From: an uncultured Candidatus Saccharibacteria bacterium | GTDB lineage: Bacteria > Patescibacteriota > Dojkabacteria > GCA-002793355 | Assembly (NCBI GenBank): GCA_964525295.1 | Contig: CAZGEO010000002.1 | Span: 65,230-129,229 of the forward strand | Direction: 5' to 3' | Length of the DNA stretch: 64,000 bases | In this document: positions 17,297-64,000 of the stretch, piece after piece | How the letters are laid out: each line of letters opens with the position of its first letter | Numbering within the stretch: position 1 is the first letter of the stretch | Made by a program: the position numbers and the translations under genes | The notes under the pieces: model-generated | Database searches by the model: none | What the model was told of the DNA's origin: nothing | The model's input: only the letters and a program-made list of their open reading frames with translations

Positions 17297-17302
17297 AGGG
17301 TT

Positions 17303-17358
17303 TCAATAAATTTCTAGCCTTACCACCCATTCCCCGTTTTCAATTTTCTAGGTAAGTA
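17303..17358. repeat. Copy A of a 56-bp imperfect direct repeat; the partner copy is at 19660-19715
   Basis: 48 of 56 nt are identical to 19660-19715. Copy A is a decayed duplicate of the 3' end of the minus-strand gene 19660-20670, with a stop codon in frame. Confidence 0.7.
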
Positions 17359-19435: not shown

Positions 19436-19659
19436 TAGTGCTAACGATGTTCGCTTTATCGAGGCTCTCAGGTGGAAGTTGATAACGTGACGTTGTTTGT
19501 ATAATTCCCCGAAGAAACTTGTAGAATATACTGCTAAATGTATTGTTAAATTACAATATTACGTTGTTGAAGTACTTCGACATTATTGAATCCTTGTACC
19601 CCTATAAAGAAAATAGTTCATATTCTTGACACATATGGCGAGAAAAATTCAACGACGTC

Positions 19660-19715
19660 TTAATAAATCTCCACCCTTACTACCCATTCCCCGTTTTCAA
19701 CTTTCCAGGTAAGTA
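19660..19715. repeat. Copy B of the 56-bp direct repeat, forming the authentic 3' end of the gene 19660-20670
   Basis: Encodes the C-terminus TWKVENGEWVVRVEIY of the minus-strand gene. Confidence 0.7.
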
Positions 19716-37714: not shown

Positions 37715-37778
37715 AAGCATTTTAAGGCGGAATCCTACTTTACGTAGGGTTTCGAAATTAAGATACTTGAAATCCCTT

Positions 37779-37861
37779 GCCGGGGTGGTGGAATGGCAGA
37801 CACGTCAGCCTTAGGAGCTGATATCCGCAAGGGTGTGGAGGTTCGACTCCTCTCCTCGGCA
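37779..37861 (+). tRNA. tRNA-Leu(TAG), a type II tRNA with a long variable arm
   Basis: Acceptor GCCGGGG / CCTCGGC with a G-T wobble. Anticodon loop CTTAGGA. T-arm GGAGGTTCGACTCCTCT. Discriminator A. No CCA is encoded. Confidence 0.85.
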
Positions 37862-38070
37862 TTTCCTTCTTCTCTTCACTTCTCTACATTTTTATTAAAG
37901 CCTTCCTTTTCGCTACCGAAAAAGAACTTCTTTTTCGGCTCACGCTCAACCAGGCTTTATTCTTGGCGTTTCGCGCAGACAATAAATGCCGAGAGAAGTG
38001 AAGAGAAGAAGGGGATAGGGGATGTGAGGAGTCGAAACCCAAACGAGACAACAACAATTTGTTGTCGAGA
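37862..38070 (+). ncRNA. Structured element trailing tRNA-Leu: a 21-bp perfect long stem (37865-37885 / 37992-38012), inner hairpin CCGAAAAAGAA/TTCTTTTTCGG and hairpin GACAACAACAATTTGTTGTC
   Basis: It shares the 24-nt exact motif AGACAACAACAATTTGTTGTCGAG and the 13-mer ACCGAAAAAGAAC with the element trailing tRNA-Ser. The long stem is kept by different sequences in the two copies. Confidence 0.5.
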
Positions 38071-38284
38071 GCAGGGCGAGGTTACGCCTAAAATCCTTTC
38101 AAAGTTCAATGTTCAATTTCAGTGACGAAGCATGAGTCCTGAAATTGTTGGGGAACCGACTCCTCTCTCATCACCTTACTAATGCTGTTCGTTCACTACC
38201 GAAAGAACTGCTTCTTTCGTTTTACCGCTCGATAGAGTAGATCTTGTGTGAAGTCTCGCAAAAAGAATACAGAAATATTGAATG

Positions 38285-39343
38285 TTAGTATGTTCTGTTA
38301 ATAACGTAATCGTTCAATGATTGTAGAAATTCACGATATTCTTCATTAACATTCTTTAATTCATTCAAATTCTTATTCGACTCATTAATCAATCGCTTTG
38401 CTTCGTTAAATGCATAATCTTTTGCACCAGTGTCGATGAGAGCTTGTTTTGCTTTGGCGATCTCTGTATCGGTTGCCTTAAGATTGCCAAGTGCATTGCG
38501 AAGATCGGCTTGCTGAGTTGAGGTACCGTTCTTTATTGCATAAGCAACCATGATAGTTCCCTTGCCTTCTTTGATATCTGACGAAGAGGATTTTCCGGTC
38601 TTTTCTTCATCTCCGAATGTTCCGATAATATCATCGATTATTTGGTATGCAATTCCTGCTGGAACGGCATATTTTTCAATTTGTTCAATTTCTAATGAAC
38701 TTGCGTTTGCAAGCATTGCTCCAGCTGTTGTCGGAAGTTCGAAAGTATATCTCCCAGTTTTCAATTCATAAACTTTTAGAACATTTTCGAGACTTGGCGT
38801 TGTATGCTCATTGAGCGCATCAAGTGTTTGTCCGTAACCAACATCAATAATCTTTTTGTTTGCAAAGGCTGCAATACGTGCGTTTATTTCAGAATTATCT
38901 GATAGGGTATTGAGCAAATACATTCCTTGGTGAGAGACAACGTCTCCCATGCATATGGCGATACCCTCACTCAGGTGTTGCACATCATTGAGGTCAGCAT
39001 ATTTATCCATAAAACCATAATGTATTGTAGGATTACTGTATCTAATTGGCGCTCTATCCATTATGTCATCATGAATAAGCAGGAAGGTATGCAATAACTG
39101 AATACCCATTGCTCCTCGGAATTCCGATCGTTCAGATGCATTTCCATTTAACATCCGATGTGTCGCGATGAAAAGTGCAGGACGAAGTCGTTTTCCTCCG
39201 AAATATAAGGGGTAGGTTAGATTATAGATATCTTGAAGTTCTGGAGTGTATGTCGCAATATCTGAGCGTGCTTCTTGTAAAAAATCTTTCAAGTATGATT
39301 CTAGTTTATCGGATAATTCCGACAACTTCTCTTTGAAATTCAT
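38285..39343 (-). CDS. Polyprenyl diphosphate synthase (GGPP/FPP synthase of the CrtE/IdsA type)
   Basis: First DDxxD LLIHDDIMD and second DDxxD QIIDDIIG aspartate-rich motifs. Confidence 0.85.
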   Translation of the reverse strand: MNFKEKLSELSDKLESYLKDFLQEARSDIATYTPELQDIYNLTYPLYFGGKRLRPALFIATHRMLNGNASERSEFRGAMGIQLLHTFLLIHDDIMDRAPIRYSNPTIHYGFMDKYADLNDVQHLSEGIAICMGDVVSHQGMYLLNTLSDNSEINARIAAFANKKIIDVGYGQTLDALNEHTTPSLENVLKVYELKTGRYTFELPTTAGAMLANASSLEIEQIEKYAVPAGIAYQIIDDIIGTFGDEEKTGKSSSSDIKEGKGTIMVAYAIKNGTSTQQADLRNALGNLKATDTEIAKAKQALIDTGAKDYAFNEAKRLINESNKNLNELKNVNEEYREFLQSLNDYVINRTY

Positions 39344-40188
39344 TATGCAGTAATCAAATTTAGTAAAGCTCTCGCTATTATAAACCCTTTCTTGGGTTTC
39401 ACTTTCTTTTCAAATACTATTAATGGATTCTTTTCAATTTGAGTAGCTGTCCAATTGTACATATCGGCAGCCGTTTTTATTGCAATGCGATATCTTCTAG
39501 GAATATATTTGTAACCAGCTTCGGCTTCTTTTTGCCAAGTTCTGTAGTAAGTAAGTTGCGCGCGAACGAAGTTCGCGAAACTTTCTTCGTTCGCGCGCAC
39601 AGCAACTTCAGTGAGCTCAGAGAGCCCATATTTTTGCATTTCTGTCGTCGGAAGATATTGGCGACCTAGTGAAATATCTTCATTAATATCACGAATAAAA
39701 TTGATGTATTGCATTGATTTTCCTAGTGCTTGCGCTGCGGGATATGCAATTTCGGGAATTCCTAATAATTTACACATGAATAGCCCTACAACTTCAGCAG
39801 AGCCGTACATATATACTTTTGTTTCCTCAATGGTTGAATAGGTCTTTTTCGTTAAATCAGCTTGCATGGCATCAAGAAAAGCGATGGTCCATTCGGGGGC
39901 AAAATTCAACTCGTTCGCCAGAGCGATATAGTCATCAACAACAAAGTCACCACTTTGCCAATCATTTTTTCCTTTGTTGAGCATATCTAATGCGGTTTCA
40001 TATCGTTTTCTGAGGATATAGAATTCGGTTTCTTGTTGGGGAATAGCATCGACATAATCATCAGCTTTTCTAACGAAAGCATATAATCTGGTTACATATT
40101 CGCGGATCTTCGGTGGGAAAAAAAGGCTCGCAGTAAAATAGGTGGTACTACCATTTTTGAATAGTGCTTGTTGTTCAGTGCTTGGCAT
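39343..40188 (-). CDS. Phytoene/dehydrosqualene synthase family protein (CrtB/CrtM)
   Basis: YAFVRKADDYVD and the QYINFIRDINEDISLGRQYLP motifs of squalene/phytoene synthases. Confidence 0.8.
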   Translation of the reverse strand: MPSTEQQALFKNGSTTYFTASLFFPPKIREYVTRLYAFVRKADDYVDAIPQQETEFYILRKRYETALDMLNKGKNDWQSGDFVVDDYIALANELNFAPEWTIAFLDAMQADLTKKTYSTIEETKVYMYGSAEVVGLFMCKLLGIPEIAYPAAQALGKSMQYINFIRDINEDISLGRQYLPTTEMQKYGLSELTEVAVRANEESFANFVRAQLTYYRTWQKEAEAGYKYIPRRYRIAIKTAADMYNWTATQIEKNPLIVFEKKVKPKKGFIIARALLNLITA

Positions 40189-41665
40189 ATTGTGAATGAA
40201 CTAGATCTGCGGTAACCTTTCCTGAGATAATGACCATAGGCAGGCCAATTCCTGGATGCGTATAGTGACCGACGTAAAATAGGTTGGGAATTTTGCGGCT
40301 TTGATTGTATGGGCGGAAAGCAGCTGTTTGAAATAAAGTCTGTGCAAGACCGAAATTATTTCCTTGGAATGAATTGTACAGTGAATCTTGATCTCTATGC
40401 GAAATGATTCTCTTATAGATGATATGTTTTCGGATCTCTGTGTTAGTGATACTTTCCAAGTGAGTAATGACTCTGGTAAAAAGCTCTTCTCTTCGTTCAT
40501 CCGTGTCAACCAGACCTGACGCAACGGGTACGAGAACAAAGAGGCTTTCTCCGTGTTCCGGAGCTAATGATGGATCAGTTTTTGCCGTTGCATGAAAGTA
40601 GTACGACGGAATGCCTGTTGGCCAATCTTTCTTTGTAAAAAGGGATTCAAAGTGAGAATCCCAACTCTCTAATGAAAAGTAATAGTTATGGTGCAATGAA
40701 TTTTGGAGCTTGCAATCTAATCCTAAATAGAAGAGTACCGTAGAAGGTGAGATAGTTTTGTTTTTCCATTTTTCTTCGGGGATTGATTGCCACTCGGGAG
40801 CCAGTAATTTGGTTTCAACATGATGGTAGTCTGCGTTGGCTATGACAATATCTGCACTAATTTCTTTCTCTGCGACACAGAAACTCTTGACTATCCCATT
40901 GTCAACATTCAACTTGGTGACTTCGCTATTGGTAATAATTGTAACTCCTAATTCGTTCGCTAATTTAGCGATTCCCTCAATTACTTTATACATTCCACCT
41001 TTAGGGAACCAAGTCCCTTGTTCGAAGTCAACGTTAAGTATAAATGAGTAGATTGAAGGAAGGTTCTTGGGACTTGCTCCGAGAAATAGCGAATGCCACG
41101 TTACTAGCTTCTGCATTCTTGGATCTTTGAAATTCTTCTTGATTACGTAATCAAGCGGCAGGTAAGCCTGCGTTCGGATGCCATCTATTATTAACTCTTT
41201 TACGAACATCGAAAAGAGTGAAGGGTAATTTTTGTAAAGAAATTTATCTTCGGCTGTCTTTAGCATATATCTGCCATTTTCAAGAAGTTTTGCAAGTTTG
41301 GTGCTACTACCGGGCTCGATTTCTTCAATTAATTTGTAAAAGTCTTCTAGATTTGCAGGAATATCATAAAATTCTGACTCTGAGAAAAAAACGCGATAAC
41401 TTGGATCTAGGCGTTTGAGCTCATAATAATCGCTTTGCTTTTTACCAAAATCAGCAAAGAATTTTTCGAAGAGATGTGGCATCCAATACCAGGAGGGCCC
41501 CATGTCAAAATGGAAACCGTCTTTTTCAAAGAACATTGCACGGCCACCTACGATTTCATTTTTTTCGTAAATTGTTACGTTATATCCTTCTTTTGCAAGA
41601 TAACAAGCGGTGGTTAAGCCACCTAGGCCTCCTCCAATTATTGCTACGGTTTTATTCTTTTTCAT
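40175..41665 (-). CDS. Phytoene desaturase family flavoprotein (CrtI/CrtN)
   Basis: N-terminal VAIIGGGLGGLTTACYLAKEGYNVTIYEKNEIVGGRA dinucleotide-binding motif. The length of 496 aa fits CrtI-family enzymes. Confidence 0.8.
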   Translation of the reverse strand: MKKNKTVAIIGGGLGGLTTACYLAKEGYNVTIYEKNEIVGGRAMFFEKDGFHFDMGPSWYWMPHLFEKFFADFGKKQSDYYELKRLDPSYRVFFSESEFYDIPANLEDFYKLIEEIEPGSSTKLAKLLENGRYMLKTAEDKFLYKNYPSLFSMFVKELIIDGIRTQAYLPLDYVIKKNFKDPRMQKLVTWHSLFLGASPKNLPSIYSFILNVDFEQGTWFPKGGMYKVIEGIAKLANELGVTIITNSEVTKLNVDNGIVKSFCVAEKEISADIVIANADYHHVETKLLAPEWQSIPEEKWKNKTISPSTVLFYLGLDCKLQNSLHHNYYFSLESWDSHFESLFTKKDWPTGIPSYYFHATAKTDPSLAPEHGESLFVLVPVASGLVDTDERREELFTRVITHLESITNTEIRKHIIYKRIISHRDQDSLYNSFQGNNFGLAQTLFQTAAFRPYNQSRKIPNLFYVGHYTHPGIGLPMVIISGKVTADLVHSQYAKH

Positions 41666-42347
41666 AGACTAATCCTTGATAATACATATATAGTGGTCCA
41701 ATCATTCCCCCCGCGAGAAAGTACCAAATTACATCGTCTAGTGGTAGTGACAAAACATTAATGTGTGGAGTATTCGCATATAACCAGAAGGATTCAACCC
41801 ATCCTGGGACGATCATATCAATTACCCAGTATACTATGATTGCAATTATTGAGAATGAAAAGGCTGTAAAAAGAGCATTCTTCCATAGGTCAGGTCTAGA
41901 AAATTGCGTCAAGACAATTACTGCGCTTGCACTTAGAATTGTCGCATGCAATGAATTCAGATGAAAGAAGAAGAATGTCATGAAGAATACTGCTAAACCC
42001 GTGATTGCTAATTTCGCTGCTCTTATAACAGCATCTCGTTGAGAAATATATAGTTCGGGAGATTGAGTTGTTTTAAGATTAAAGATTGCTGTATGAATAA
42101 CTGAAGCAATCCCTCCTGAAGAAAATCCGAAGATCCACGGTTCGATTGAAAAAGAACTTCCTGTTACTGTAATTGGGTGATACCAATCGATACTATAGAC
42201 GGGGTCACTTATTTGTCCAATAAAGGCAAATATGACAGACATAAATACTTGCTGCTGGCGTAGTCGAGGAAATTTGAAATAGATTACAAGCCAAAGTATT
42301 AGGTATATGCATCCTAGTAATAAATAAGCAATACCTAGCAAGTTCAT
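41652..42347 (-). CDS. Lycopene-cyclase-domain membrane protein (CrtYcd type)
   Basis: Polytopic 231-aa protein at the head of the crt operon. The LPLDDVIWYF motif resembles the PxEE motif of heterodimeric-type lycopene cyclases. Confidence 0.45.
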   Translation of the reverse strand: MNLLGIAYLLLGCIYLILWLVIYFKFPRLRQQQVFMSVIFAFIGQISDPVYSIDWYHPITVTGSSFSIEPWIFGFSSGGIASVIHTAIFNLKTTQSPELYISQRDAVIRAAKLAITGLAVFFMTFFFFHLNSLHATILSASAVIVLTQFSRPDLWKNALFTAFSFSIIAIIVYWVIDMIVPGWVESFWLYANTPHINVLSLPLDDVIWYFLAGGMIGPLYMYYQGLVYEKE

Positions 42348-42510
42348 CGAGCAAGTATACCAGAAAAAGAGGCTTTTCTGAATAGGTAAGGTGAATTGAA
42401 AGTGGCTAGCTATACCCGCACTTCAATGAGTGCACTGTGGTATTTTCTGTGTGATATTCCACAAGAATCAAAAGGAGCGGGGTTATTAGATATTGTGGGA
42501 TTTAAAAATA

Positions 42511-42582
42511 TGCCGCTACGGGGAGTCGAACCCCGCCCAGAGGATTGAAAATCCTCTGTCCTAACCGATAGACGATAGCGGC
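42511..42582 (-). tRNA. tRNA-Glu(TTC)
   Basis: The minus-strand cloverleaf has acceptor GCCGCTA / TAGCGGC, anticodon stem GAGGA/TCCTC with loop TTTTCAA, and T-arm CGGGGTTCGACTCCCCG. Confidence 0.85.
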
Positions 42583-42859
42583 AATGGTGAATTATACAAA
42601 ATTGTAAGCGCAGAATCAATATCGAGAGCAAAACAATTATCAATTTTCAATTCTTAATGTTTAATATAAATGAATAGAGGAAGTTAATTACGAAAGCGGG
42701 GGAATTTTGCTTTCGATTTTGGGTTTATTGTTCTATTCGAAAATTAAGAATAATCATTATTAATGGAGAAGAAACCAAAAATGTAATTTGTTTGAATTGC
42801 TTATGGATAATTATATTGTTTCACATGAAATCCTTCAAAAAATATGCTACCATGTCAGC

Positions 42860-45863: not shown

Positions 45864-45959
45864 CTAAAATAAATAATTGAATTTTGCATTGATAATTGAG
45901 AATTAGAAATTAACTATGTTACCTGTACAACTTTCCCTCGTTATGTCACAATAAGTCTT

Positions 45960-53646: not shown

Positions 53647-56600
53647 TTATTTCATCGGCCATTCCTTAATTAAACCATCAATCTCTTTCATAACCCTATC
53701 CGTATTTACTAACGCAACAATGATTTTCTGATAATGTAAAACTTCATCAAAACTCAATTTGCGACCTTTTCTATCTTTTAGCCATTTTTGAGCAGGTTGG
53801 TATCCACCAATATAAAATTCCCATGCAATTTTAGGAACACTATCAAAGTATTGGGTATCATTTATCCAAACCTTGTTTTCTGAATATTTTGGATTTATTA
53901 CTTCGTTTTCACCTGCAACTGGATATTGTGTTACCAATGAACTGCTGTTTGCATGTTCCATTAAATGATATTGCCTAATTTCTCGACCTTTTTCGACGAG
54001 TGACCAGAATAGCTTTTGATTTGATGTAAATGGAATTCGTGGGAAATCTATTTTCAGGAATTCTTTATATCGTTCTCGATATGTTGGAGAGTGAAGTATT
54101 GCGTAAATATAATCAAGAACATCTAGAGGATTGAATGTTCCTTCTTTGCCAGAGTCTGCGTGTTCGTGGTCAGGGATAAAATTGAGTTTTAGTTTACTTG
54201 CAATATGGTCAATAAATCTTTGATTTAAGTTCGGATGACGTCTTGTAGTGTCAAGTTGCGAATCAGTGTAAATGTATAGTGGAAAATTCATGGCGTTACT
54301 ACCAGTATTTCCAGATAAGTAAATCGCTTCAGAAATACTAGTTGTAATGAATGCATGGGCAAAGGAACTATCCTTCAGTGCTTTAGTCGTAAGTAATCCA
54401 ATATTGTTGCCTTTTACATAGTTTTGCATTATTTCAGTTCGCCATCTCCATAATACTTTGTTATCAAAGTATGTATATTTCTTCTCAAATGGTCTGTAAG
54501 CAATCGCCATTGTTTTTTCTGCATCAATTGCGATAGTGTTCTTATTTTGGATAATCCATTTTGCATAGTTCTTTCCCAAAGTATATTTGGTTCTAAAGGT
54601 TGTTTCGTCGTAATCAGTATTTTGTAAATCCTTTAATCGTGAAATGATTGATTCTTGATTATCAGAAATTGCAAATGAGTCACCCATTGTTACAATCCCT
54701 GAGACATTCCTATTAAAGATTGAGTCAATACGTATATAATTTTTATACTCGCCTTTTAGCTGATTGTCCTTGTACACGAAAAAGTATTCAGGCGATTGAT
54801 AGTCGAGTCTGGTCCATTGAATGCTTCCAATATTGGATTTATTTAGAACCGAATATTTTGAATCTCTTTTTCCAAATAAGTCTGCATGATTAACTTCAGC
54901 TAGTGTTTTTTTTGTTTTTTTACTTTTTATAAAAAAGTTTATACTGACCCCTTGCATTATATCGAATACGTTTTCGTCTTTTGTTCCATCAGGGGAGGTT
55001 TCTTTCTTCTTAGTATTTCCGTGAAGGTCCAAGATATAAATTTTATCGAATGTTTTAAGTAGGTGATTACGCATACCTCTAAACGTTGGATTGTCCAAAA
55101 AACCGTGATTGTTAATATACGCGATAATACCTTCCCCATTTTTCTCAATAAACCATTCTGCAAAGCGAATAAACTTTACATAGTCATCTTGAAGCCAATG
55201 CTTCTTTTCGCCAAAATGCACACCATCAACATATTTATAATTCTCGATCAGTTTTGTTATCCATTCTCCGTTATTTGAAGAAACACCGCTGTATGGAGGA
55301 TTACCCATGACAACCATGATTGGTTTTTCCTTCTTAACTTCGTTTGCTTCCATACTTTCAGTCGTTAACCACTGCGAAAGCATATCTTGTTGGTGAGCTC
55401 CGGGTTCTTCTAGCGAATTTGTAAGATAAACGCCGAGTCGTTTACCTTTTCCTTTGGTTGCTTCATAGCCAGTTTCGGCCAAGGTAATATCCAATTTTAG
55501 ATGAGCCATTGAGTAGCTTGCCATCAAAATCTCAAACCCGTGAAGTCTTGGGAGTAAATGTTCGTCAACGTAAGATTGCCAGGCGCCCGCTTGCCCAGTA
55601 AACCGAGTTTTGTAAATATGTTTAATAATGTGGTCCAAAAAGGTTCCGGTTCCAGTTGCTGGGTCAAGAACCTGAACTCGATGTTCAGATACTTTTTGTT
55701 TCTTCTTTGAGCCTTGTAATTCTTTTTCGACCTCGATCTTGCTTGTATCTGCGAGTCCATCGGCAATACCGAACTCAGTTTTCAATATGTCATCGACAGC
55801 ACGTACGATGAAGTCAACCACAGGCTCTGGGGTGTAATAGACGCCTCGAGCCTTTCGCATTTTCTGATCGTATTCTGCAAGGAATGTTTCGTAGAAGTGT
55901 ACGATTGCATCGGTTCGTTTTGTTTCTTTTCCGAAATTCTCGAGTAATTCACGTACATTTACATGATTAAATAGTTCCGCAATATCGTCGACAATCCAAA
56001 TAATTCGTTCATCAATATTGTAACCTGCAATTGTTTGGAAGAAATTCCTCAAAAATGGATTTGACTTAGGCAAGAGATTATTGGCTTCGTCACGAGTAAA
56101 AGTATCTAAGGAAGAATCATGGTAACGGGCTGCAAACATGCCGTAGGCGACTGTTTGAGCATAAATATCCGAGTATTGCTCAAGAGAAAGGTCACGAATT
56201 AATAATTGTTTGAAGACATCGAACTGTTGTTCGAGTGGCCCTTTCTCTGCAGTTACCTCGCTTAATGAGAGATATATTACATTCTTAAGCATTTTTGCCT
56301 TCTCAGCCATTAACGACGCTAACTCCTTTGGACTACGAATTGTAATAGATTTCTTCTGTGTGAAGTTGGTTAATACAGAGTCGAGTAGGGGAATATTCTC
56401 AGGAATAATCTCGATATTTCCGTTTGTTAGACGGGCAATTTCAATTCTTTGAACTTCAACCCCATTCAGAAAGAATCTATAATCAAGGTAGTTAGTGAAG
56501 CAAAGGTTGTTTAGAGAAGCTTTGTATCTATTAAATTGATTTTTCGTTTTGAATTCTTTGTCTAGATCGACGTCAATGTCTTTCGCTTCGATATACCCAA

Positions 56601-56796
56601 TTGGTGTCTTACCTTTTAATATTACAAAATCAGGTGCTCCAACTTTCTGTTGCTTCGGGTCGTTTACTGCATTAATGCCAGGGTTTAGTGTTTCTACAAG
56701 CGTTTCTAATGCTGGGCGGTAGGCGTGTTCACGTGCGTGACCGGTTTTGAATGTTTTAATGACTTCGTCTAAATATGATTGAACTGTGTTAGACAT
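53647..56796 (-). CDS. Type IIG restriction-modification enzyme of the MmeI family
   Basis: N-terminal PD-(D/E)xK region GHAREHAYRPALETL...PDFVI...GYIEAKD. SAM-binding VLDPATGTGTFL. N6-adenine MTase motif IV VMGNPPYSG. A C-terminal target-recognition region. Length 1049 aa. Confidence 0.8.
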   Translation of the reverse strand: MSNTVQSYLDEVIKTFKTGHAREHAYRPALETLVETLNPGINAVNDPKQQKVGAPDFVILKGKTPIGYIEAKDIDVDLDKEFKTKNQFNRYKASLNNLCFTNYLDYRFFLNGVEVQRIEIARLTNGNIEIIPENIPLLDSVLTNFTQKKSITIRSPKELASLMAEKAKMLKNVIYLSLSEVTAEKGPLEQQFDVFKQLLIRDLSLEQYSDIYAQTVAYGMFAARYHDSSLDTFTRDEANNLLPKSNPFLRNFFQTIAGYNIDERIIWIVDDIAELFNHVNVRELLENFGKETKRTDAIVHFYETFLAEYDQKMRKARGVYYTPEPVVDFIVRAVDDILKTEFGIADGLADTSKIEVEKELQGSKKKQKVSEHRVQVLDPATGTGTFLDHIIKHIYKTRFTGQAGAWQSYVDEHLLPRLHGFEILMASYSMAHLKLDITLAETGYEATKGKGKRLGVYLTNSLEEPGAHQQDMLSQWLTTESMEANEVKKEKPIMVVMGNPPYSGVSSNNGEWITKLIENYKYVDGVHFGEKKHWLQDDYVKFIRFAEWFIEKNGEGIIAYINNHGFLDNPTFRGMRNHLLKTFDKIYILDLHGNTKKKETSPDGTKDENVFDIMQGVSINFFIKSKKTKKTLAEVNHADLFGKRDSKYSVLNKSNIGSIQWTRLDYQSPEYFFVYKDNQLKGEYKNYIRIDSIFNRNVSGIVTMGDSFAISDNQESIISRLKDLQNTDYDETTFRTKYTLGKNYAKWIIQNKNTIAIDAEKTMAIAYRPFEKKYTYFDNKVLWRWRTEIMQNYVKGNNIGLLTTKALKDSSFAHAFITTSISEAIYLSGNTGSNAMNFPLYIYTDSQLDTTRRHPNLNQRFIDHIASKLKLNFIPDHEHADSGKEGTFNPLDVLDYIYAILHSPTYRERYKEFLKIDFPRIPFTSNQKLFWSLVEKGREIRQYHLMEHANSSSLVTQYPVAGENEVINPKYSENKVWINDTQYFDSVPKIAWEFYIGGYQPAQKWLKDRKGRKLSFDEVLHYQKIIVALVNTDRVMKEIDGLIKEWPMK

Positions 56797-56933: not shown

Positions 56934-59231
56934 CTAAATAGTGTTGGTTATGGAGGGGCCAGCTGACATATTCCATATGTCTTTAACGAAATTGTCAATA
57001 TCGGATGGTAAAACCACTTTCTTCAGCATTGGCAAGATGTTGTCGTTATAATGAGGTGATGAGGTCGATAGTTCATCTCTCCAATTCCATACTTTGGAAA
57101 CAATTTCTAAACCATCTAAATATTTCTTATCAATAAAATCTTTATACTTAATTTTGTATTCGCTATCATGTTTTTGGAGGAAACTTTTAATAAATTCGAA
57201 AACTGAATTATATTTATTATGTGTGAGAACCCCAATGTAACTAAGATATATTGCTGATTTGGGCTCGTCTGTATGCAAATCTGCGGCATGAAGGTGCTTT
57301 TCAATCATGTAAGTTAGAGTCTTTACGCTTTTCATAATAGTATCCTCACTATGATTATCAATGATTAATTTTATTGCAATGAATGTAGTTAACTGGAAAT
57401 ATGCTTCAATATTACTGAATTTCTCTTTTGGAATAATAAACCACGAGGAAAGGCTTGAATAGTCATTAATCAAGCGGTCAATATTTGAGATGTAATCAGG
57501 TTTTTTAATATTCGATCTAACTAAAAATAAAAGTTGTATCAGCTGTATTAAGTATTTACCTACGAGACTAAGAATATCAGAGTAAATATCAGTGGTCTCA
57601 CGGACATAGGACCTAAGGGAGAATGCCAATTCTTCATAAAAAGTTAATGCATTTTCTAGTACCTGTTCACTTTTAAGCGCATTTTTCGCAATTGATGTAT
57701 AAACGGAATTAATTAGCCACATATTGAAAATGTAAATGAACATACTATGATATGCACTTCCTCTTTTTACTTGCTGAATAAAGTCAGTGTATTTAAAGAA
57801 TAGTTTCAGAAAATCCGCTATGTTCGATTTCGCTGTAGAAATTGGTACAAAGAGAGATGCATTTAATGTAAATACAATAGTTTTAAAAACAGTTTGAACT
57901 ATTATTTGCTGTTCGTGTGTAATACCCCATTGAATTATTTCTTCTAATGATTCAATGACATTCGGAGCCAACAACTGATCTCTGTAACCAACAGTTTGAA
58001 TGGAGATGTTGTTTAATGAAACTTCTGCTTGATAAATGGATTCAAGGTTATTTGAAACAAGAATTTCTGATATTAGTGTCTTAAAGTAATGAAAGATTTG
58101 AAATGAAATGGGATTATCACCTAGCAGATCGTTTTTTCCATAACTTAATTTCAGTGATTCTAAAACTAGGCTTTCGTAGGTTTTAATCACACATCTCATA
58201 CTAGTTTCCTTTTGAGCAATCAGAAGCCTTTTTGCGAATCTGTTGAAATCTTCAAAGAAGTTCATGAACAATTCTTGGCTATCGCTATTAAATGTCAGCA
58301 GCCCATCCTTTGCTAACTCTTTTGATGAATTCCCTTTTCTTAACTGCAGGTACTGGTATAAAATTCTTGCTACTGAATCAATAGCTTGATTCGTTTGGAA
58401 ATCCTTCTGTTTTTCTGACAATTGTGTCGCAATCTCTATCATGCCTTGAAGGTTATCAAAAAGATATTTGAAATTTGTTTTTTCAGCAGAACCATAAACG
58501 AACTTGGTGATTTCTTCATTAGAGTAGTTGCTGTTTGCACTAATTACTTTTATGAAATGCTCAGCATCAATTTTGATTGTTTTTAATAGATTGCTACACT
58601 CATTTTCTAAATACTTGATTGCATTAGTTGGATTAACTTTCTGTGAGGTAGATTGGTGTAAGAAATCTATCAATATAAGAGCAAGAGTAATTAAAGAGAT
58701 TGCTGTAGCAGTAAAGAGTTTTATCCATGCTAAGTAAGTAGTGGTACCAGAAGTGAGAAAACCAATAAATAGAAAAAGTATAGTTATCGTTGCAAGATAC
58801 CTATAAATCTGTTGGTCACGTTTATCATGAATATACTTTTCGTAAAAAGAGCTAGACTGCAACTCATTTACACTTTGCTGAAGAAAATTGGTAAGAGAAT
58901 ATACTATTGCGATGATACCACCCATCATGCTACCTATTGCGAAATATCCGTTTGATAATGCCGAATAGTTTTCAAAGACAGGAAAATAAAAATATGTAAG
59001 AAACGAAAGTGTTAAACCAATAATAATTATTGTAATTCTAATAATATTCCGTGAATTCAGATCCCAAATTGAAATTGTTAGCAACCATCGCGATCTGGTT
59101 TTGTATAAGAATACCAAAAACTTAGCTCTTATTGATTTAACAAATATCTGTGCCGCGGATATTAGTGTTTTAATCCTAGCTATGATTTGGTTTTTTGATT
59201 TTTCGCGAATTGTTTTAATTGTGTTGGACAT
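56934..59231 (-). CDS. Hypothetical membrane-anchored protein, 765 aa
   Basis: Four or five N-terminal TM helices are followed by a roughly 560-aa predicted alpha-rich soluble domain. No recognisable motif. Very AT-rich. Confidence 0.55.
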   Translation of the reverse strand: MSNTIKTIREKSKNQIIARIKTLISAAQIFVKSIRAKFLVFLYKTRSRWLLTISIWDLNSRNIIRITIIIIGLTLSFLTYFYFPVFENYSALSNGYFAIGSMMGGIIAIVYSLTNFLQQSVNELQSSSFYEKYIHDKRDQQIYRYLATITILFLFIGFLTSGTTTYLAWIKLFTATAISLITLALILIDFLHQSTSQKVNPTNAIKYLENECSNLLKTIKIDAEHFIKVISANSNYSNEEITKFVYGSAEKTNFKYLFDNLQGMIEIATQLSEKQKDFQTNQAIDSVARILYQYLQLRKGNSSKELAKDGLLTFNSDSQELFMNFFEDFNRFAKRLLIAQKETSMRCVIKTYESLVLESLKLSYGKNDLLGDNPISFQIFHYFKTLISEILVSNNLESIYQAEVSLNNISIQTVGYRDQLLAPNVIESLEEIIQWGITHEQQIIVQTVFKTIVFTLNASLFVPISTAKSNIADFLKLFFKYTDFIQQVKRGSAYHSMFIYIFNMWLINSVYTSIAKNALKSEQVLENALTFYEELAFSLRSYVRETTDIYSDILSLVGKYLIQLIQLLFLVRSNIKKPDYISNIDRLINDYSSLSSWFIIPKEKFSNIEAYFQLTTFIAIKLIIDNHSEDTIMKSVKTLTYMIEKHLHAADLHTDEPKSAIYLSYIGVLTHNKYNSVFEFIKSFLQKHDSEYKIKYKDFIDKKYLDGLEIVSKVWNWRDELSTSSPHYNDNILPMLKKVVLPSDIDNFVKDIWNMSAGPSITNTI

Positions 59232-59372
59232 ACATATAATTATAACCTAAATGTCCCACCATTATCATTATTTGAATATTTTTTTAATTCATTCAAAATG
59301 AACTGCACGTTTTTATTAATCAACTCAGAATCACTGTTACAACAAATGAGATTATCAAATTAGTAATAGGCT

Positions 59373-59416
59373 GGGGTTTCGGTCACCTTGCGGAAGTTTT
59401 GTTCACTTCGTTTCAC
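59373..59416. repeat. Copy 1 of a 44-bp direct repeat; the partner copy is at 62756-62799
   Basis: About 40 of 44 nt are identical, with the core CGGTCACCT(T/C)GCGGAAGTTTTGTTCACTTCG. It overlaps the stop codon of the Abi_C gene. Confidence 0.7.
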
Positions 59417-60195
59417 ACGGTATTGATCGTGCCTTTAATTGAGAGTGGATTGAAGTGATGAAAGTCTAAGATGAAGATCCCAAGAGATCCGCAAAGGTTA
59501 ACTGCAAGCTCTGCATATTTTGGATCGGTTATTTCTACACCAGCAATTTGTCCGTGTCTATTTCCATCACTGTTTGAAAGTGTAGACAGAGCGTTTACTA
59601 TTGATGCAATTCCCTTTATGAACTGGTGCTCGTTTTGATAGTCAGCGATATTTAATCCCACCGCTTGTTCGGTATCCTTGAGTAATTCTGATAATTCACC
59701 CGTATATTTATTGGACATACCTCTTTCGTTCAATATTGTTCTACATAATGTTTCCAACATTGTTCTAGCACTGGTAATAGCTTCAGCAGGATTTGAAATA
59801 ATCTTATTGCTTGCGGTTATCCAGTCTTCTCTATAAGTATTTTCCATTAGATGAGAAAACTTCAATCCAATTGGATTGGAGCCGAAAGGAGCATAAAGGA
59901 CTTCGGTTAAGTAATGAATTTCTTGAGGTGTGGGATAGGAATACTTCATATCTAAAGGGGTTTTTATAAGTGTGTCTAGAGCATAAAACTGTTCCTTTGC
60001 TGGAAGACTAAGTATTACCTCAGTAAAAAGTTCTTCCCTTTTGGGAGTTATTGAATACGCTGTTAAAGGTTTAATACTTTTTGAGTAGTTAGTTGAGAAT
60101 GAAAGGATTTCCTTAAGAGAAAATCCTTTGCCCGCACCTGCAAAATACGATGCAAAAATTTCGATTCTTGCCCGTTCAAGTTTTTCTATAGCCAT
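59413..60195 (-). CDS. Abi_C-like abortive-infection C-terminal-domain protein
   Basis: TMLETLCRTILNERG and NALSTLSNSDGNRHG resemble the conserved Abi_C motifs. Confidence 0.5.
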   Translation of the reverse strand: MAIEKLERARIEIFASYFAGAGKGFSLKEILSFSTNYSKSIKPLTAYSITPKREELFTEVILSLPAKEQFYALDTLIKTPLDMKYSYPTPQEIHYLTEVLYAPFGSNPIGLKFSHLMENTYREDWITASNKIISNPAEAITSARTMLETLCRTILNERGMSNKYTGELSELLKDTEQAVGLNIADYQNEHQFIKGIASIVNALSTLSNSDGNRHGQIAGVEITDPKYAELAVNLCGSLGIFILDFHHFNPLSIKGTINTV

Positions 60196-60199
60196 AGTG

Positions 60200-61003
60200 T
60201 TATTTGATTAGATCCCATTTATTTAGATAATAGCTCATATCGTTCTCCTTTTTCCCGATATATGGCTTTTCTTCATTGAATTTTATGGCGACTGCATATC
60301 TAGATTTATCTTTCATTGTAAATATGTACTTTTCAGTCACTAATTTCTCTACGACATGAGCAGGAAGAATCATATAATTGTCCGAACTATCACCATGAAG
60401 TACAAAGACATAGAAGATGTTGCTTTCGTTATAGCGGTCAAAAGAAGCCTTTCTAATCGTTAAGGGGTAGGTGTTAACCTTATTAAGGTTAGAAGTCTTT
60501 ACCTGTATTCCATAAAATTTTGCCTTTTTCGTTGCGACTATATCAAGTCCGACATCGACAGACATGATACTTGCATTGAATCCTAGAAATAAAAGTTTGG
60601 AGCAGACCAAGTGTTCTCCACCCTTGCCTGTGTAGCCACTCTCAAGCTTCTCTTTCGCTTCAAGTTTCTGGAGTTGCTTTGCCGCTTTGTCTGTTTTGGA
60701 AATCTTTACATCGTCATTAAGAATGTAAAGTCCCTTATCATTTCGTTTGAAAGTTGCGTTATCTCCATTTAATTTGATATCGACAGTAATTACTGCACTC
60801 ATTGTGTTTTCGGGGCGTTTTGATCCAGTTACAAGTAAACCTTTTTCAAGTGCCAGTTTTGTGATCTGCAAAACAGACAAGCCATCTTCATTTTGGCGCA
60901 ATATTTTAGTTGCGGCCTCTTTGTAAGCATTCATATTGGAATTATATTCTTTTCCTGTTTCGGTTGCTATGATTACTGGAACCTGAGAGAATATCTGCGG
61001 CAA
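60200..61003 (-). CDS. Mrr-like restriction endonuclease (HARE-HTH N-domain plus Mrr_cat PD-(D/E)xK domain), a putative Type IV enzyme
   Basis: N-terminal AATKILRQNEDGLSVLQITKLALEKGLL...FKRNDKGLYIL matches the HARE-HTH/Mrr_N domain. C-terminal GGEHLVCSKLLFLGF...SVDVGLDIVA...GIQVKT follows the Mrr catalytic pattern. Confidence 0.6.
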   Translation of the reverse strand: MPQIFSQVPVIIATETGKEYNSNMNAYKEAATKILRQNEDGLSVLQITKLALEKGLLVTGSKRPENTMSAVITVDIKLNGDNATFKRNDKGLYILNDDVKISKTDKAAKQLQKLEAKEKLESGYTGKGGEHLVCSKLLFLGFNASIMSVDVGLDIVATKKAKFYGIQVKTSNLNKVNTYPLTIRKASFDRYNESNIFYVFVLHGDSSDNYMILPAHVVEKLVTEKYIFTMKDKSRYAVAIKFNEEKPYIGKKENDMSYYLNKWDLIK

Positions 61004-61104
61004 TTCTTGAATTAGAGCATCTGCAAGCTCTCGAACTCCCTAAAGTTGCCAATCACCCCCCAAAAGTTTATACTCAACGGCAAATATATAAAAAATTACA
61101 AAAA

Positions 61105-61977
61105 ATGAAGCCTAATCCTTTCTTTTTAAAGTTAATTATTATAATTACACTGACGATAGTTGTTTATACCATTGTTGCAGTTGTTAATTTATTTCTCCCC
61201 CCTAAACGCCCGGGTGAATTACTCTCTTTAGAAAAGGCCTGTTCGTTAGAGTCAAAGGGGAAACGGGTAACAGTAGATGGTTTTCTTAGACTAAATAGTA
61301 AAGTTGTGACTTGTAGATCAACCTCGTGTAATATGATTTTTTCGGAATATCCATCAATCTTTGAGCTCGATGGAAGTGAAGTTGTTGTGTGGGTTACCGT
61401 GGGAGACGATAATAATGAGGCTGTTGACTACCCGAAAGGTATATACGTTACCAGTACTTTCAAAGTAAAAACTAATACAGGTGAAATACTAACGAACGAG
61501 CGTGTGAGAATAACAGGAAGAGCGAGGACGGGCAAGGATTTCTGTGAATTGGATATTGATTTAATTGAAAGGGCTCCCGAACCAGTTGCAAAAGAAGTTG
61601 CCCTTGAAAACCTGTGTAACGATGACCTCGACCGAGAAAAGATTTCTTTTTCAGGTTTCTTACGTCCATCGAAAGACGGGTTGAGCGCTATTGGTTATAC
61701 TGATCTTTCTGTGAGTGCCAAAGCAAGCGGTGGAACAGAGTATATGATTAATTTGCCAATTAAGGCTACGAACCGAGAACAAATAAAGCCCAAGTATCCA
61801 ATGCTTTATCCTGAAGGGACTATGTTTTCGGGTGAAGTCATTTCGCTCAATATTGGCGAAGACAAGGTAGTTGAGATAAAGAATAAAGAATTCAAGTTCG
61901 AGGCCTACCAGTACAAAATTCAAAAAGATCAGGAAAAGAAGTGTTATGTGTTGGTTGAGAGGATTGAGGAGATGTGA
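61105..61977 (+). CDS. Hypothetical membrane-anchored protein with two internal repeats of about 100 aa
   Basis: N-terminal TM helix. Repeats begin RVTVDGFLRLNSK... and KISFSGFLRPSKDG.... Confidence 0.5.
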   Translation: MKPNPFFLKLIIIITLTIVVYTIVAVVNLFLPPKRPGELLSLEKACSLESKGKRVTVDGFLRLNSKVVTCRSTSCNMIFSEYPSIFELDGSEVVVWVTVGDDNNEAVDYPKGIYVTSTFKVKTNTGEILTNERVRITGRARTGKDFCELDIDLIERAPEPVAKEVALENLCNDDLDREKISFSGFLRPSKDGLSAIGYTDLSVSAKASGGTEYMINLPIKATNREQIKPKYPMLYPEGTMFSGEVISLNIGEDKVVEIKNKEFKFEAYQYKIQKDQEKKCYVLVERIEEM

Positions 61978-62096
61978 GGGGAAAATCTGGATCGACGGCT
62001 TTATTCGAAAAGCTTTGTGATTGAAATGGTGCAATGGATTATAAAGAATTTTAAACTTTGGTAGAATAAGTACTAATTGGAACTTTATATAAATAA

Positions 62097-62720
62097 TTGC
62101 GTATGTCGTTAAATTTGCTGGTGTTAGGCGTATTTGATTTACTTATTGTTTGCTATGTAATCTTTCTGATTCAGCAAGCGATTGCATTCAAAGCAAAATA
62201 TGGATATTTATGTGAGGCAAGTGGCCTAGGTGAAGTCAAAAATGCTCAATATAAAACTTACAATCTAGGTTATTTCCTGTTTGGCTTTATAAGCCTGGCT
62301 TTTACATATAATTTGCATCAGATACTTATTCCAGGCGTAATTACAAATATTGCGATCGCGTTAGTGTATATTGCAGGTGTGGCACTTTGTTTGATTGCAG
62401 TATTCCCTCGCGATACCTTCCATACTGAGCATACGTTAGCGAGTACTGTAATGTTTTTTTGTGCTGTTATATCTATGCCTCTACTGGTAATTCCGTTTTT
62501 ACAAACGCCTGCAATCTCAAGAGCAATTGTTCCATTTAACATCATTATCCCCGCATTGTTGCTGTACTATCTTTTCTTGAAATTCAAAAATTTTAAAAAA
62601 TATGGAGAAATTGATAATGAAATGGAGCGGTATGTGAGTATCTGGGAATGGATACCCTTTATATCTGCGTATTGTTGGTTCTTTGCATTAAATACAGTAA
62701 TTATATTGAGGCTTTTGTAA
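62097..62720 (+). CDS. Hypothetical polytopic membrane protein, 207 aa
   Basis: Five or six predicted TM helices. No recognisable motif. Confidence 0.5.
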   Translation: MRMSLNLLVLGVFDLLIVCYVIFLIQQAIAFKAKYGYLCEASGLGEVKNAQYKTYNLGYFLFGFISLAFTYNLHQILIPGVITNIAIALVYIAGVALCLIAVFPRDTFHTEHTLASTVMFFCAVISMPLLVIPFLQTPAISRAIVPFNIIIPALLLYYLFLKFKNFKKYGEIDNEMERYVSIWEWIPFISAYCWFFALNTVIILRLL

Positions 62721-62755
62721 GGAAAGTTATTATTTGTTTGTTCCTAGCATTAAAG

Positions 62756-62799
62756 GGGGATTCGGTCACCTCGCGGAAGTTTTGTTCACTTCGCTTCAA
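62756..62799. repeat. Copy 2 of the 44-bp direct repeat
   Basis: Matches copy 1 at 59373-59416. Confidence 0.7.
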
Positions 62800-62825
62800 A
62801 ACATCACGCTCCTCGACCCCCGGTT

Positions 62826-62989
62826 CGCTCGACAACAAATTGTTGTTGTCTTACTCCCGCTTCGAATCCCACAACATTTTTTATCTTTTCCTCTCCTAAT
62901 TACTCCGTTTTTGTTCTTTTTCGGTTCCTGACCGTAACGAAAAATAGCGGTGCTGTTTTGCGTAGGGAAGGAGAGAAAAAGATAAAAAC
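62826..62989 (-). ncRNA. Structured element trailing tRNA-Ser: long stem (62877-62896 / 62970-62989) and hairpin GACAACAACAATTTGTTGTC at 62829-62849
   Basis: Same architecture as the element trailing tRNA-Leu, with the same 24-nt motif and ACCGAAAAAGAAC 13-mer. The T-loop-like fragment TTCGAATCCC matches tRNA-Ser's own T-loop. Confidence 0.5.
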
Positions 62990-63076
62990 GGAGAAGGCGG
63001 GATTCGAACCCGCGATACCCGTAATGGGTATACTCCCTTTCCAGGGGAGCCCTTTCAACCACTCAGGCACCTCTCC
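62989..63076 (-). tRNA. tRNA-Ser(GGA), a type II tRNA
   Basis: Minus-strand cloverleaf with acceptor GGAGAGG / CTTCTCC. Anticodon stem CTCCC/GGGAG with loop CTGGAAA. Long variable arm TACCCATTACGGGTA. T-arm GCGGGTTCGAATCCCGC. Confidence 0.85.
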
Positions 63077-63098
63077 AAAGTTTTCTTAGTGTTGTGAA

Positions 63099-63848
63099 TT
63101 ATACCTTATGCTTAAGAAAATCGGTAACCTGCGAAATTACCTCATCTTTCTTGCTGAACATAAGATCGTGCCCGTCGTTTTCAAACGTTATTACGCGCTT
63201 ATTAGGCACTCTTTGTAAAAGTTTCAGCTGTTGTTTATATGGAAGTAGTACATCTTTTTTTCCAAGGAAGACAAGTTTTTCAGTTGCATCAGTCTTTTCT
63301 AGGGGAATTGTGAAATCTTTTGTAAGCATGTGCCCTTGTTGTTGAATTTGTGACATGGCTGGTAGTGAATCCTTAAGCTTTTCTAAAAAAGGTTGCAGGT
63401 CTTTATTGGGGCGAACTTTCCCTTTCACATAATTTATGGTCACTTTTGCAGCAAGTTCGGCTTGGGTGCAAGGAAAGGTAGTAAGCACAGGTGCGAATAG
63501 AACACTCTTCTTAATAAGTTTTGGGGTAGTGGCTGAAAGTGCCAGTGCAATTCCTCCGCCCATTGAATGCCCAATTACAGAGTTTTCTTCGAAATCAAAA
63601 TGTTTTACAACCGTTTGCATATATTCAACGTAATAGGGGATTGAGATTGGTACTGTAGGTGACGTTTTACTCGAAAAACCGGGCGAGTTTATTGCAATGA
63701 CGAGAAAATGTTGTGCTAGTGCGCGAAAAAACGAGCCATAGTGAGAAATTTCTGCTCCTCCACCGGGAAAAAAGAAGACAGGATCTCCGCTCCCGTAGGT
63801 TTCATAATTAACTTCAAGTTTTTCGGGTGTGGTAATTGTAAGAAACAT
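63099..63848 (-). CDS. Alpha/beta-hydrolase fold protein
   Basis: Nucleophile elbow GHSMGG (GxSxG) and an N-terminal HGxGG-like oxyanion region PGGGAE. Confidence 0.75.
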   Translation of the reverse strand: MFLTITTPEKLEVNYETYGSGDPVFFFPGGGAEISHYGSFFRALAQHFLVIAINSPGFSSKTSPTVPISIPYYVEYMQTVVKHFDFEENSVIGHSMGGGIALALSATTPKLIKKSVLFAPVLTTFPCTQAELAAKVTINYVKGKVRPNKDLQPFLEKLKDSLPAMSQIQQQGHMLTKDFTIPLEKTDATEKLVFLGKKDVLLPYKQQLKLLQRVPNKRVITFENDGHDLMFSKKDEVISQVTDFLKHKV

Positions 63849-64000
63849 TCTGCTGAATTATACCTCACATAGAGAAAATTGCCAGAAGAGAGTCAATTTT
63901 CAACTTATATTGTAAAAGGAATTTCACTCCACTATATTGATAATTGAAAATTGAGAATTGGTAATTGTTTAGCACTTGACAGCCCAGACTGCTAACCTTA

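Follow-up and report, generated by a model that had tools for sequence, protein, structure and literature searches.

A repeat-bounded four-gene segment behind a structured tRNA-Ser trailing element in a Dojkabacteria genome: a candidate site-specific islet

Introduction

A fragment of a tRNA 3' end that is found downstream of the intact tRNA is a mark of integrase-mediated insertion into the tRNA gene (tDNA), the principle on which the Islander approach to genomic islands is built (PMC4383910). Further described systems to which a locus of this kind can be compared are cis-mobilizable elements (CIMEs), which carry attL- and attR-like repeats at both ends and no genes for integration or transfer (PMC5704250), and the islands at the tmRNA (transfer-messenger RNA) gene ssrA of Dehalococcoides (PMC3146451). 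How the tiny genomes of the candidate phyla radiation (CPR) acquire and lose genes is poorly understood, and no description of CPR integration sites was found in the literature searched. Here we analyse a stretch of 64,000 nucleotides (nt), the window, from an uncultured Candidatus Saccharibacteria bacterium of the GTDB lineage Dojkabacteria (contig CAZGEO010000002.1, positions 65,230 to 129,229). The object of interest is a segment of 3.3 kb (59416-62755) with four open reading frames (ORFs) that lies between two direct repeats, next to a tRNA-Ser and the folded element trailing it. We regard the chances as about even that this segment is an integrase-less, CIME-like islet that was inserted site-specifically at the 3' end of the tRNA-Ser trailing unit and accreted at a hotspot. 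A site-specifically inserted cassette had already been proposed from the letters of the window and its ORFs, in what we call the sequence-only reading.

Judged from its L27 and GroES relatives and from extended synteny, the organism is close to Candidatus Dojkabacteria. Loci of relatives that were fetched for comparison are referred to by L numbers where they have to be told apart.

Results

The direct repeat and the tRNA-Ser trailing element

The direct repeat consists of a left copy (59373-59415) and a right copy (62756-62798), both read on the minus strand, which are identical at 40 of 43 positions. The sequence-only reading had given a length of 44 nt; the repeats around the four-gene segment are real and one nucleotide shorter. 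The 31-nt core of the repeat, with at most 3 mismatches, occurs exactly twice in the window, which covers 64 kb of a genome that measures at least about 0.9 Mb, and in none of 100 dinucleotide-preserving shuffles. Identity between the copies is cut off sharply at both edges of either copy.

The right copy is not a free-standing sequence. Reading along the minus strand from tRNA-Ser (GGA; 62988-63077, from ARAGORN and Rfam scans), one first meets a directly adjoining long hairpin domain, whose stem has 20 bp (62988 to 62876), and then a three-way-junction (3WJ) element of 115 nt (62870 to 62756), found by folding and by a covariance model (R1). The whole trailing unit measures roughly 230 nt. 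Stem P1 of the junction is formed by GGGAUUCG and CGAAUCCC, stem P2 includes the hairpin GACAACAA-CAAU-UUGUUGUC, and P3 comes after it; the junction folds with -43.6 kcal/mol (z -3.0) and scores 112 bits with R1. Its last 43 nt are exactly the right repeat copy, which comprises the 3' half of P3 and the 3' strand of P1 and terminates in CCGAATCCCC, a mimic of the T-loop and T-stem of tRNA-Ser. The right repeat had been placed 27 nt away from the tRNA-Ser trailing element; it is instead the 3' terminal part of that element.

The covariance model was built from three junctions, namely the one described above, a paralogue behind tRNA-Leu in the window, and one in L006. A search with this model returned a fourth junction, in L015 (49 bits, E 2e-10). 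The entire Ser unit of the window, hairpin (homologous to L015 15736-15856) as well as junction, can be aligned to the L015 region at 81% identity; the homology sets in just past the position of the tRNA 3' end and runs up to CCGAATCCCC, where the right repeat copy has its outer edge. Across the four members 88.5% of the cells are paired and 14 of 31 pairs have changed on both sides, in an alignment of four sequences fitted to the model; this level of pairing was reached by 0 of 500 shuffles, and slid controls gave 34-51%. In all four junctions the predicted fold is better for the tRNA-sense strand than for its complement, which weakly favours an RNA that is made together with the tRNA. The model found no junction at the tRNA-Ser loci of L016, L017, L025 and L026-31.

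Rfam searches over 59200-63100 at a permissive threshold gave tRNA-derived matches only and no family for the trailing element. Neither ARAGORN nor Rfam detected a tRNA or tmRNA at 62756-62870, where the T-arm mimic of 9-10 nt alone is present. A tRNA-like reading of the junction was rejected, given the lack of a T-arm and a D-arm and the negative ARAGORN result. Likewise, an anticodon-arm-like hairpin (GAAGU-N7-ACUUC) was dropped as a candidate crossover site, as L015 does not conserve it and the conserved GUUUUG/CAAAAC stem would compete with it.

The left copy repeats the terminal 43 nt of the trailing element as an orphan. Read on the minus strand, it begins with the three nucleotides of the stop codon of the gene for an AbiJ-like protein, the outermost gene of the segment, and the region around the copy does not fold significantly (z -0.47). 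At all three differing positions the right copy has the base of the L015 orthologue and the left copy another base; the pairing in P1 would be lost through one of these changes, a U-to-A substitution in GAAUCCC. Being derived at all three differences and lacking a significant fold, the left copy behaves as a displaced, unconstrained fragment. Alternatively, it originated as a divergent site that was carried in by incoming DNA.

An intact element that includes the right copy, together with an orphan left copy in direct orientation, is the geometry on which Islander relies. Since one copy ends an intact structured element and the other is an orphan direct fragment with all three substitutions, the arrangement has the geometry of an attL/attR pair. 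Under the site-specific reading, incoming circular DNA with a matching site would have recombined at the last 43 nt of the trailing element. Such an insertion would leave the element intact, with the right repeat as attL-like end, and would put a second, displaced copy at the opposite end of the insert, the left repeat as attR-like end, which would since have drifted. The islet would be part of an accessory stack accreted at the 3' flank of tRNA-Ser, consisting of the unit, then the four genes, then a 765-aa protein and a Type ISP enzyme. We infer that the repeats are attachment (att) sites produced by a recombinase and that the segment may still be mobile; because the islet has no recombinase, further movement would need either a recombinase in trans, in the manner of cis-mobilizable elements, or homologous recombination.

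Two other explanations concern the repeat sequence as such. The 43-mer could be a functional module, such as a terminator or a signal for RNA stability or processing, that is kept twice by selection. Each copy is indeed located where a transcription unit of the minus strand would end (the trailing RNA and the AbiJ mRNA, respectively), and the identical core of 21 nt can fold into the small hairpin GAAGU-N7-ACUUC. Yet this hairpin is not conserved in L015, a U-tract is absent, and the left copy has neither a pairing partner nor a significant fold. The terminator scan made no call there, and is itself not above background (4 found, 3.0 expected). An identity of 93% over 43 nt, unstructured parts included, points to common descent instead, and we consider selection for a duplicated module very improbable.

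The 43-mer could also be a member of a dispersed family of the REP (repetitive extragenic palindrome) or MITE (miniature inverted-repeat transposable element) kind, unrelated to any boundary. The small share of the genome that the window covers leaves room for this, as does the existence of at least two paralogues of the parent unit, at tRNA-Ser and at tRNA-Leu. Families of this kind have many copies at unrelated sites, and here there are 2 copies in 64 kb. BLASTN-short and ungapped scans found no third copy, degenerate ones included, in the window or in related loci, and no second copy of the 43-mer was present in the related loci fetched. An exact 21-mer of the core had no match in GTDB representatives, JGI metagenomes or IMG/VR, and the Leu paralogue has another 3' end, which matches its own tRNA. 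The data support the conclusion that the repeat, for which a search for further copies had been suggested, is not a common dispersed intergenic repeat, and membership in such a family is hardly to be expected.

The tRNA-Leu paralogue and the T-arm copies

A paralogous unit of hairpin and 3WJ (37863-38168, plus strand) lies directly 3' of tRNA-Leu(TAG) (37778-37862). It consists of a hairpin at 37865-38012, with arms of 21-32 bp, and a junction at 38024-38170, and it belongs to no Rfam family. The Ser and Leu units have an exact 23-mer in common (GACAACAACAATTTGTTGTCGAG), which had no match in genome contigs; a degenerate form of it gave five matches, which were rejected as chance hits in coding regions of unrelated high-GC contigs, none of them viral. 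The 3' end of the Leu unit is a copy of the tRNA-Leu T-arm and differs from the 3' end of the Ser unit. In both units of the window the 3' strand of P1 is an exact direct copy of 10-11 nt of the T-loop and T-stem of the cognate tRNA (Ser CGAATCCC, Leu CGACTCCTCTC), and the 5' strand of P1 is an inverted copy of the cognate T-arm. The apparent covariation in P1 is thus a matching to the tRNA, since both strands of P1 copy the T-arm of their own tRNA.

The same architecture, in other sequence, is found in L006, L007 and L009, where tRNA-Leu is likewise followed by a junction; at its end, the one in L006 repeats the 3' end of tRNA-Leu exactly over 18 nt. In some Dojkabacteria similar to CP129470.1 (L006, L007 and L009, 4208-4960) a peptide deformylase gene (def) comes after this junction, and in L008 def and the 3' half of the junction are missing through a plain deletion with a 2-nt microhomology (TG). 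An insertion of def at the tRNA-Leu of these relatives as a site-specific event was therefore rejected, the difference being a plain indel.

By the Islander principle (PMC4383910), the T-arm copies at the P1 ends of the junctions and the 18-nt copy in L006 are the tRNA-fragment signature of island ends. As a T-arm fragment lies downstream of an intact tRNA, the unit itself has the form of a miniature island. The 3.3-kb segment repeats this form at the next level outward, where the unit's own 3' end is the duplicated target. Going beyond the site-specific reading, one may propose that the unit of hairpin and 3WJ is an undescribed structured class that mimics the T-arm and acts as a surrogate attachment site for mobile DNA. 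The unit would then probably be an RNA made with the tRNA, and islets would accrete behind it such that the essential single-copy tRNA is never at risk. We regard this proposal as rather unlikely.

The variable flank of tRNA-Ser and the sister strain

The 5' side of tRNA-Ser(GGA) is conserved: in GroES-anchored loci it is adjoined by an alpha/beta hydrolase and/or NDK, followed by a CIRCE operator (controlling inverted repeat of chaperone expression) and groES. In the window the hydrolase gene lies at 63099-63848 on the minus strand; compared with the loci L016 and L017, its product is 36% identical to the hydrolase of CP129470.1. On the 3' side, different genes are found in each of the loci compared: a histidine kinase at a distance of 20 nt in L016, an ImmA/M78-like gene and a truncated homologue of a 546-aa gene of L015 in L017, OmdA in L025, a 436-aa protein in L026-30, and the trailing unit with the accessory genes in the window. 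Five Logan contigs from five samples (L018-L022) end within 3 nt of the tRNA-Ser(GGA) 3' end (L017 5488-5490), which suggests a branch in the assembly graph that arises from population or strain variation or from a downstream repeat. The variable 3' flank beside the conserved 5' flank supports the reading of the site as a putative hotspot. The predicted products of the neighbouring genes, a Type ISP restriction-modification (RM) enzyme, the AbiJ-like protein and a HARE-HTH nuclease, are of a defence type, and this too would fit an islet.

In L015 no tRNA adjoins the unit, which lies at the distal edge of a group of genes of unknown kind (292, 281 and 546 aa). The 546-aa protein, encoded upstream of the orphan unit (L015 15936-19265), is cysteine-rich with several CxxC motifs. 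A nearly identical truncated copy of its gene is present in CP129470.1 (L017 4373-4756), downstream of tRNA-Ser and beside the ImmA/M78-like gene, and the protein may be part of a mobile element that uses the tRNA-Ser site. These two positions indicate that units may mark the distal ends of islands.

They are also what speaks for tandem accretion, in which the left repeat would be the remnant of an older second unit of hairpin and 3WJ that closed an earlier four-gene island. The complete unit by tRNA-Ser would be a subsequent arrival, either accompanying a newer element that is now empty or constituting it. Both readings involve the same recombination chemistry, but here the 43 nt would be what is left of a unit after truncation and not a block of identity made in one event. 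Tandem arrays are common at tDNA sites (PMC5704250; PMC4383910). The inner edge of the left copy is, however, as sharp as its outer edge, no upstream part of a unit was detected in or beyond the 3' end of the AbiJ gene, and a truncation precisely at the stop codon would have to be a coincidence. On balance we think it rather unlikely that the left repeat arose in this way.

A sister strain was examined by exact look-ups in Logan. Its counterparts of the nuclease (99.2% identity), the 290-aa protein (92.1%) and the DUF998 protein (99.5%), three of the four segment genes, are each on a contig of 5,588 bp, and variants of the genes from MFS (major facilitator superfamily) through Type ISP (98.9%), including Ldh_2 (97.6%), are on a contig of 14,866 bp. 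No protein on record for the sister matches AbiJ, the 765-aa protein or the hydrolase at 90% identity or more, and the exact sequences of these three occur on the two source contigs only. The absence of the 765-aa protein is uninformative, since the 14,866-bp contig cannot reach the start of that gene. A collinear contig of 5,588 bp that misses both AbiJ and the hydrolase would hold less than 787 bp to the left and less than 1,128 bp to the right, and 3,068 bp need placing. As this length cannot be placed under collinearity, the sister differs structurally or by gene disruption beside the three-gene block, provided that the three proteins share one contig, which is taken from the identical length of 5,588 bp. 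Sequence comparison with the sister cuts both ways: the neighbourhood seems plastic, yet three genes are shared. The apparent non-collinearity around the block would count for an islet. The strain comparison that had been suggested earlier thus points to a difference beside the block; with three of its four genes retained, the segment is not simply present or absent as a unit.

The sister data also bear on the possibility that the 43-nt copy is a passive scar of illegitimate or homologous recombination, for instance of a local duplication while a defence island gained and lost genes, and that the four genes do not form one cassette. The sister has a record of the nuclease, the 290-aa and the DUF998 protein and none of AbiJ, the 765-aa protein or the hydrolase at the 90% level, which points to variation irrespective of the repeat boundaries. 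In addition, the tRNA-Leu locus of relatives changes by plain deletion with a microhomology of 2 nt, as described above, and the composition of the segment is nearly native. A scar would leave unexplained why the end of the duplicated piece coincides so exactly with the natural 3' limit of the element and why the piece is in direct orientation, as tDNA fragments are. We judge this explanation unlikely.

Several observations weigh against a site-specific islet. Neither the islet nor the scanned set of about 50 window ORFs yielded an integrase or another recombinase. The islet has no room for a decayed one, and its intergenic gaps are at most 170 nt. The insertion target is not a tRNA or tmRNA according to ARAGORN and Rfam, and the element family is known from only four sequences. 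Among close relatives neither an empty site nor another occupant was found: in the loci compared, tRNA-Ser has other neighbours and lacks the unit, while in L015 the unit is present and the sequence beyond it shows no similarity to the flank of the left or of the right repeat. Two conserved pieces of the unit and the 43-mer had no match on viral contigs. The sister keeps three of the four genes at 92-99.5%, and no variation of the repeat-bounded segment as a whole is seen in the sequences compared; the retention of the nuclease, the 290-aa protein and the DUF998 protein also makes the segment old relative to the sister split. Its composition is only marginally atypical. The GC content of the four genes (0.35-0.39) is that of the genome (0.388 ± 0.027), and the tetranucleotide distance of the segment (0.204) is inside the control range (0.154 ± 0.019, maximum 0.209). 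For the site-specifically inserted cassette of the sequence-only reading this leaves the att-like geometry and the variable tRNA flank in place, and not its presence or absence as a whole.

The four genes of the segment

The four ORFs are arranged in two divergent pairs and encode an AbiJ-like protein, a HARE-HTH nuclease, a 290-aa protein and a DUF998 protein; as noted before, no integrase is among them. The AbiJ-like protein (59413-60195, minus strand, 260 aa) has an Abi_C/HEPN C-terminal domain. The earlier assignment to Abi_C is borne out by Pfam (Abi_C, 3e-9) and PADLOC (AbiJ, 1e-12), with a further match to phrog_23253 (2e-20), and the protein aligns with plasmid proteins of the 'abortive infection family' over its C-terminal half only. 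Its sequence LSNSDGNRHG corresponds to LRNKHGDAHG and IRNRIGDSHG in two plasmid homologues. From this alignment, the canonical HEPN arginine is replaced by serine and the histidine is kept (S-N-x5-H versus R-N-x5-H), and the protein hence lacks the catalytic R-x4-6-H motif.

The nuclease gene (60200-60934, minus strand) lies 4 nt upstream of AbiJ and encodes 244 aa with a HARE-HTH domain (Pfam, E 3e-10) and a PD-(D/E)xK domain of the PDDEXK_5 type. The mechanical ORF (60200-61003) is longer; a full HMMER search gave 675 representatives at E 1e-3 or better, nearly all of which begin at ORF residue 24, and as the public gene call also begins there the start is probably M24 (60934). The HARE-HTH domain that had been read from the sequence is confirmed, whereas for Mrr_cat, the second domain named, Pfam gave no match even at E up to 10. 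The sole nuclease-domain match of the window protein is a sub-threshold one to PDDEXK_5 (E 0.017). Among 37 homologues, HARE-HTH is found in 33, PDDEXK_5 in 27, and Mrr_cat or Mrr_cat_2 in 5-6, and weakly; E107, D127/D131 and Q144-V-K146 (Q144-x-K146) are invariant in the alignment. The nuclease is accordingly predicted to be a PD-(D/E)xK enzyme in the same clan as Mrr and outside Mrr_cat. The methylation dependence named in the sequence-only reading finds no support in these results. PDB sequence and profile searches with the nuclease gave nothing, nor did tblastn against plasmids. Both the AbiJ-like protein and the nuclease have PHROG relatives. Homologues of the nuclease family on 8 viral contigs are solitary, with no AbiJ, 290-aa or DUF998 neighbour, and AbiJ and the nuclease are for this reason not established as a conserved pair.

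The 290-aa protein (61105-61977, plus strand) has an N-terminal membrane anchor and no family match in domain scans. A single-sequence AlphaFold2 model has a mean pLDDT (predicted local distance difference test) of 40.8 and is unusable; it is confident only for the N-terminal helix at residues 5-30. The membrane anchor that had been read from the sequence thus stands, and the two internal repeats read along with it are marginal (BLASTP E 0.05, 20% identity). All 23 substitutions relative to the sister fall past residue 79, compared with 1-2 substitutions in the neighbouring proteins, which suggests a fast-evolving protein with a possibly diversifying exposed domain. The fourth gene (62103-62720, plus strand) encodes a polytopic membrane protein of 205 aa from ATG (62103) or 207 aa from TTG at 62097. 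It had been taken for a membrane protein of no family; the first part is correct, and the family is DUF998 (Pfam, 5e-11).

Promoter and terminator scans showed no excess over shuffled background, and exact-protein look-ups of the window genes recorded none.

Neighbouring genes and other tRNA loci

Just outside the left repeat, a gene for a 765-aa membrane protein without family match (56934-59231, minus strand) has the most atypical composition of the region, with a tetranucleotide distance of 0.282. It is followed by the gene of the 1049-aa Type ISP/IIG RM enzyme (53647-56796, minus strand), which forms the outer part of the variable, defence-rich stretch. On the other side of tRNA-Ser, a CIRCE-like operator (TTAGCACTTGACAGCCCAGACTGCTAA) is found at the far end of the window (63968-63994) and matches the region upstream of groES in L016; an HrcA-like gene lies at 32975-33730. 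In L026 and L027 the sequence after tRNA-Ser, CGGAGAGGGG, repeats the 3' strand of that tRNA's acceptor stem in inverted orientation; it could form a hairpin with the tRNA end and be another kind of tRNA-trailing structure.

The carotenoid genes crtB, crtI and lycopene cyclase (39343-42583) lie between a polyprenyl synthase gene and tRNA-Glu. In L011, L015 and L025 tRNA-Glu is directly beside the polyprenyl synthase, on the other strand. To judge from these loci, the carotenoid block has probably been gained or rearranged at another tRNA, tRNA-Glu. An AT-rich motif (ATTGAKAATTGAGAATTRG) occurs upstream of tRNA-Glu (42634-42658, minus strand), of an LCP gene (45888-45911) and of the groES operator (63943-63966), and may be a promoter or UP-like element. 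A second direct repeat of 59 nt (17300-17358 and 19657-19715, 86% identical) surrounds a single ORF of 683 aa (17384-19435) that has no Pfam or NCBIfam match; its right copy overlaps the 3' end of a minus-strand ORF (19660-20670). This pair may be another repeat-bracketed insertion.

Comparison with known systems

The novelty of the locus is its target, a conserved folded element that copies the T-arm of a tRNA; the cassette itself is an ordinary kind of object. The attachment sequence lies in a folded element that is absent from Rfam and is found behind two or more tRNAs. Should this element prove to be a dedicated landing pad or a new tRNA-linked RNA, it would provide a handle on CPR islands that methods based on tDNA fragments would miss, as well as a concrete candidate RNA.

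The first class of systems to compare are tDNA genomic islands, which are inserted by tyrosine integrases into the 3' part of tRNA or tmRNA genes (Islander, PMC4383910, which cites Williams 2002, PMC100330). As in these, the locus combines an intact target with a displaced 3' fragment in direct orientation, the identity block extends to the 3' end of a structured gene, and the flank of the tRNA varies among relatives. Unlike in tDNA islands, the target is a trailing element of about 230 nt that mimics a tRNA T-arm at its end and is not a tRNA, and the segment has no integrase gene and is very small (3.3 kb). The islands at the tmRNA gene ssrA in Dehalococcoides (PMC3146451) share the location at the 3' end of a gene for a small structured RNA and the occurrence in an uncultivated lineage with a small genome; their target is a known RNA, the tmRNA, and their mobilisation is described as site-specific.

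A second class are defence islands at tRNA genes. The clustering of the Type ISP RM enzyme, the AbiJ-like protein and the HARE-HTH nuclease at a variable tRNA flank is similar. In contrast to such islands, the AbiJ-like protein of the window lacks the HEPN arginine, two of the four genes encode membrane proteins with no link to defence, and activity is predicted only. Integron cassettes (attC) resemble the segment as small, promoter-poor gene units with repeats that look like recombination sites and a folded element at one end. Unlike in integrons, no IntI was found among the window ORFs scanned, the segment has neither an attI nor imperfect palindromes of the attC type at its ends, the four genes form two divergent pairs, and the repeats are direct copies of one sequence.

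The final class are CIMEs and their tandem accretion (PMC5704250), with which the segment has in common the attL- and attR-like repeats at both ends, the lack of genes for integration and transfer, and the accessory stack at one target; a 43-nt repeat is present at both ends and a recombinase is absent. In contrast to described CIMEs, no related integrative and conjugative element (ICE) or integrative and mobilizable element (IME) is known for this lineage, and mobilisation in cis as well as descent from a larger element are hypothetical here. By analogy, the closest described category for the segment is nevertheless that of a CIME in a tandem array (PMC5704250).

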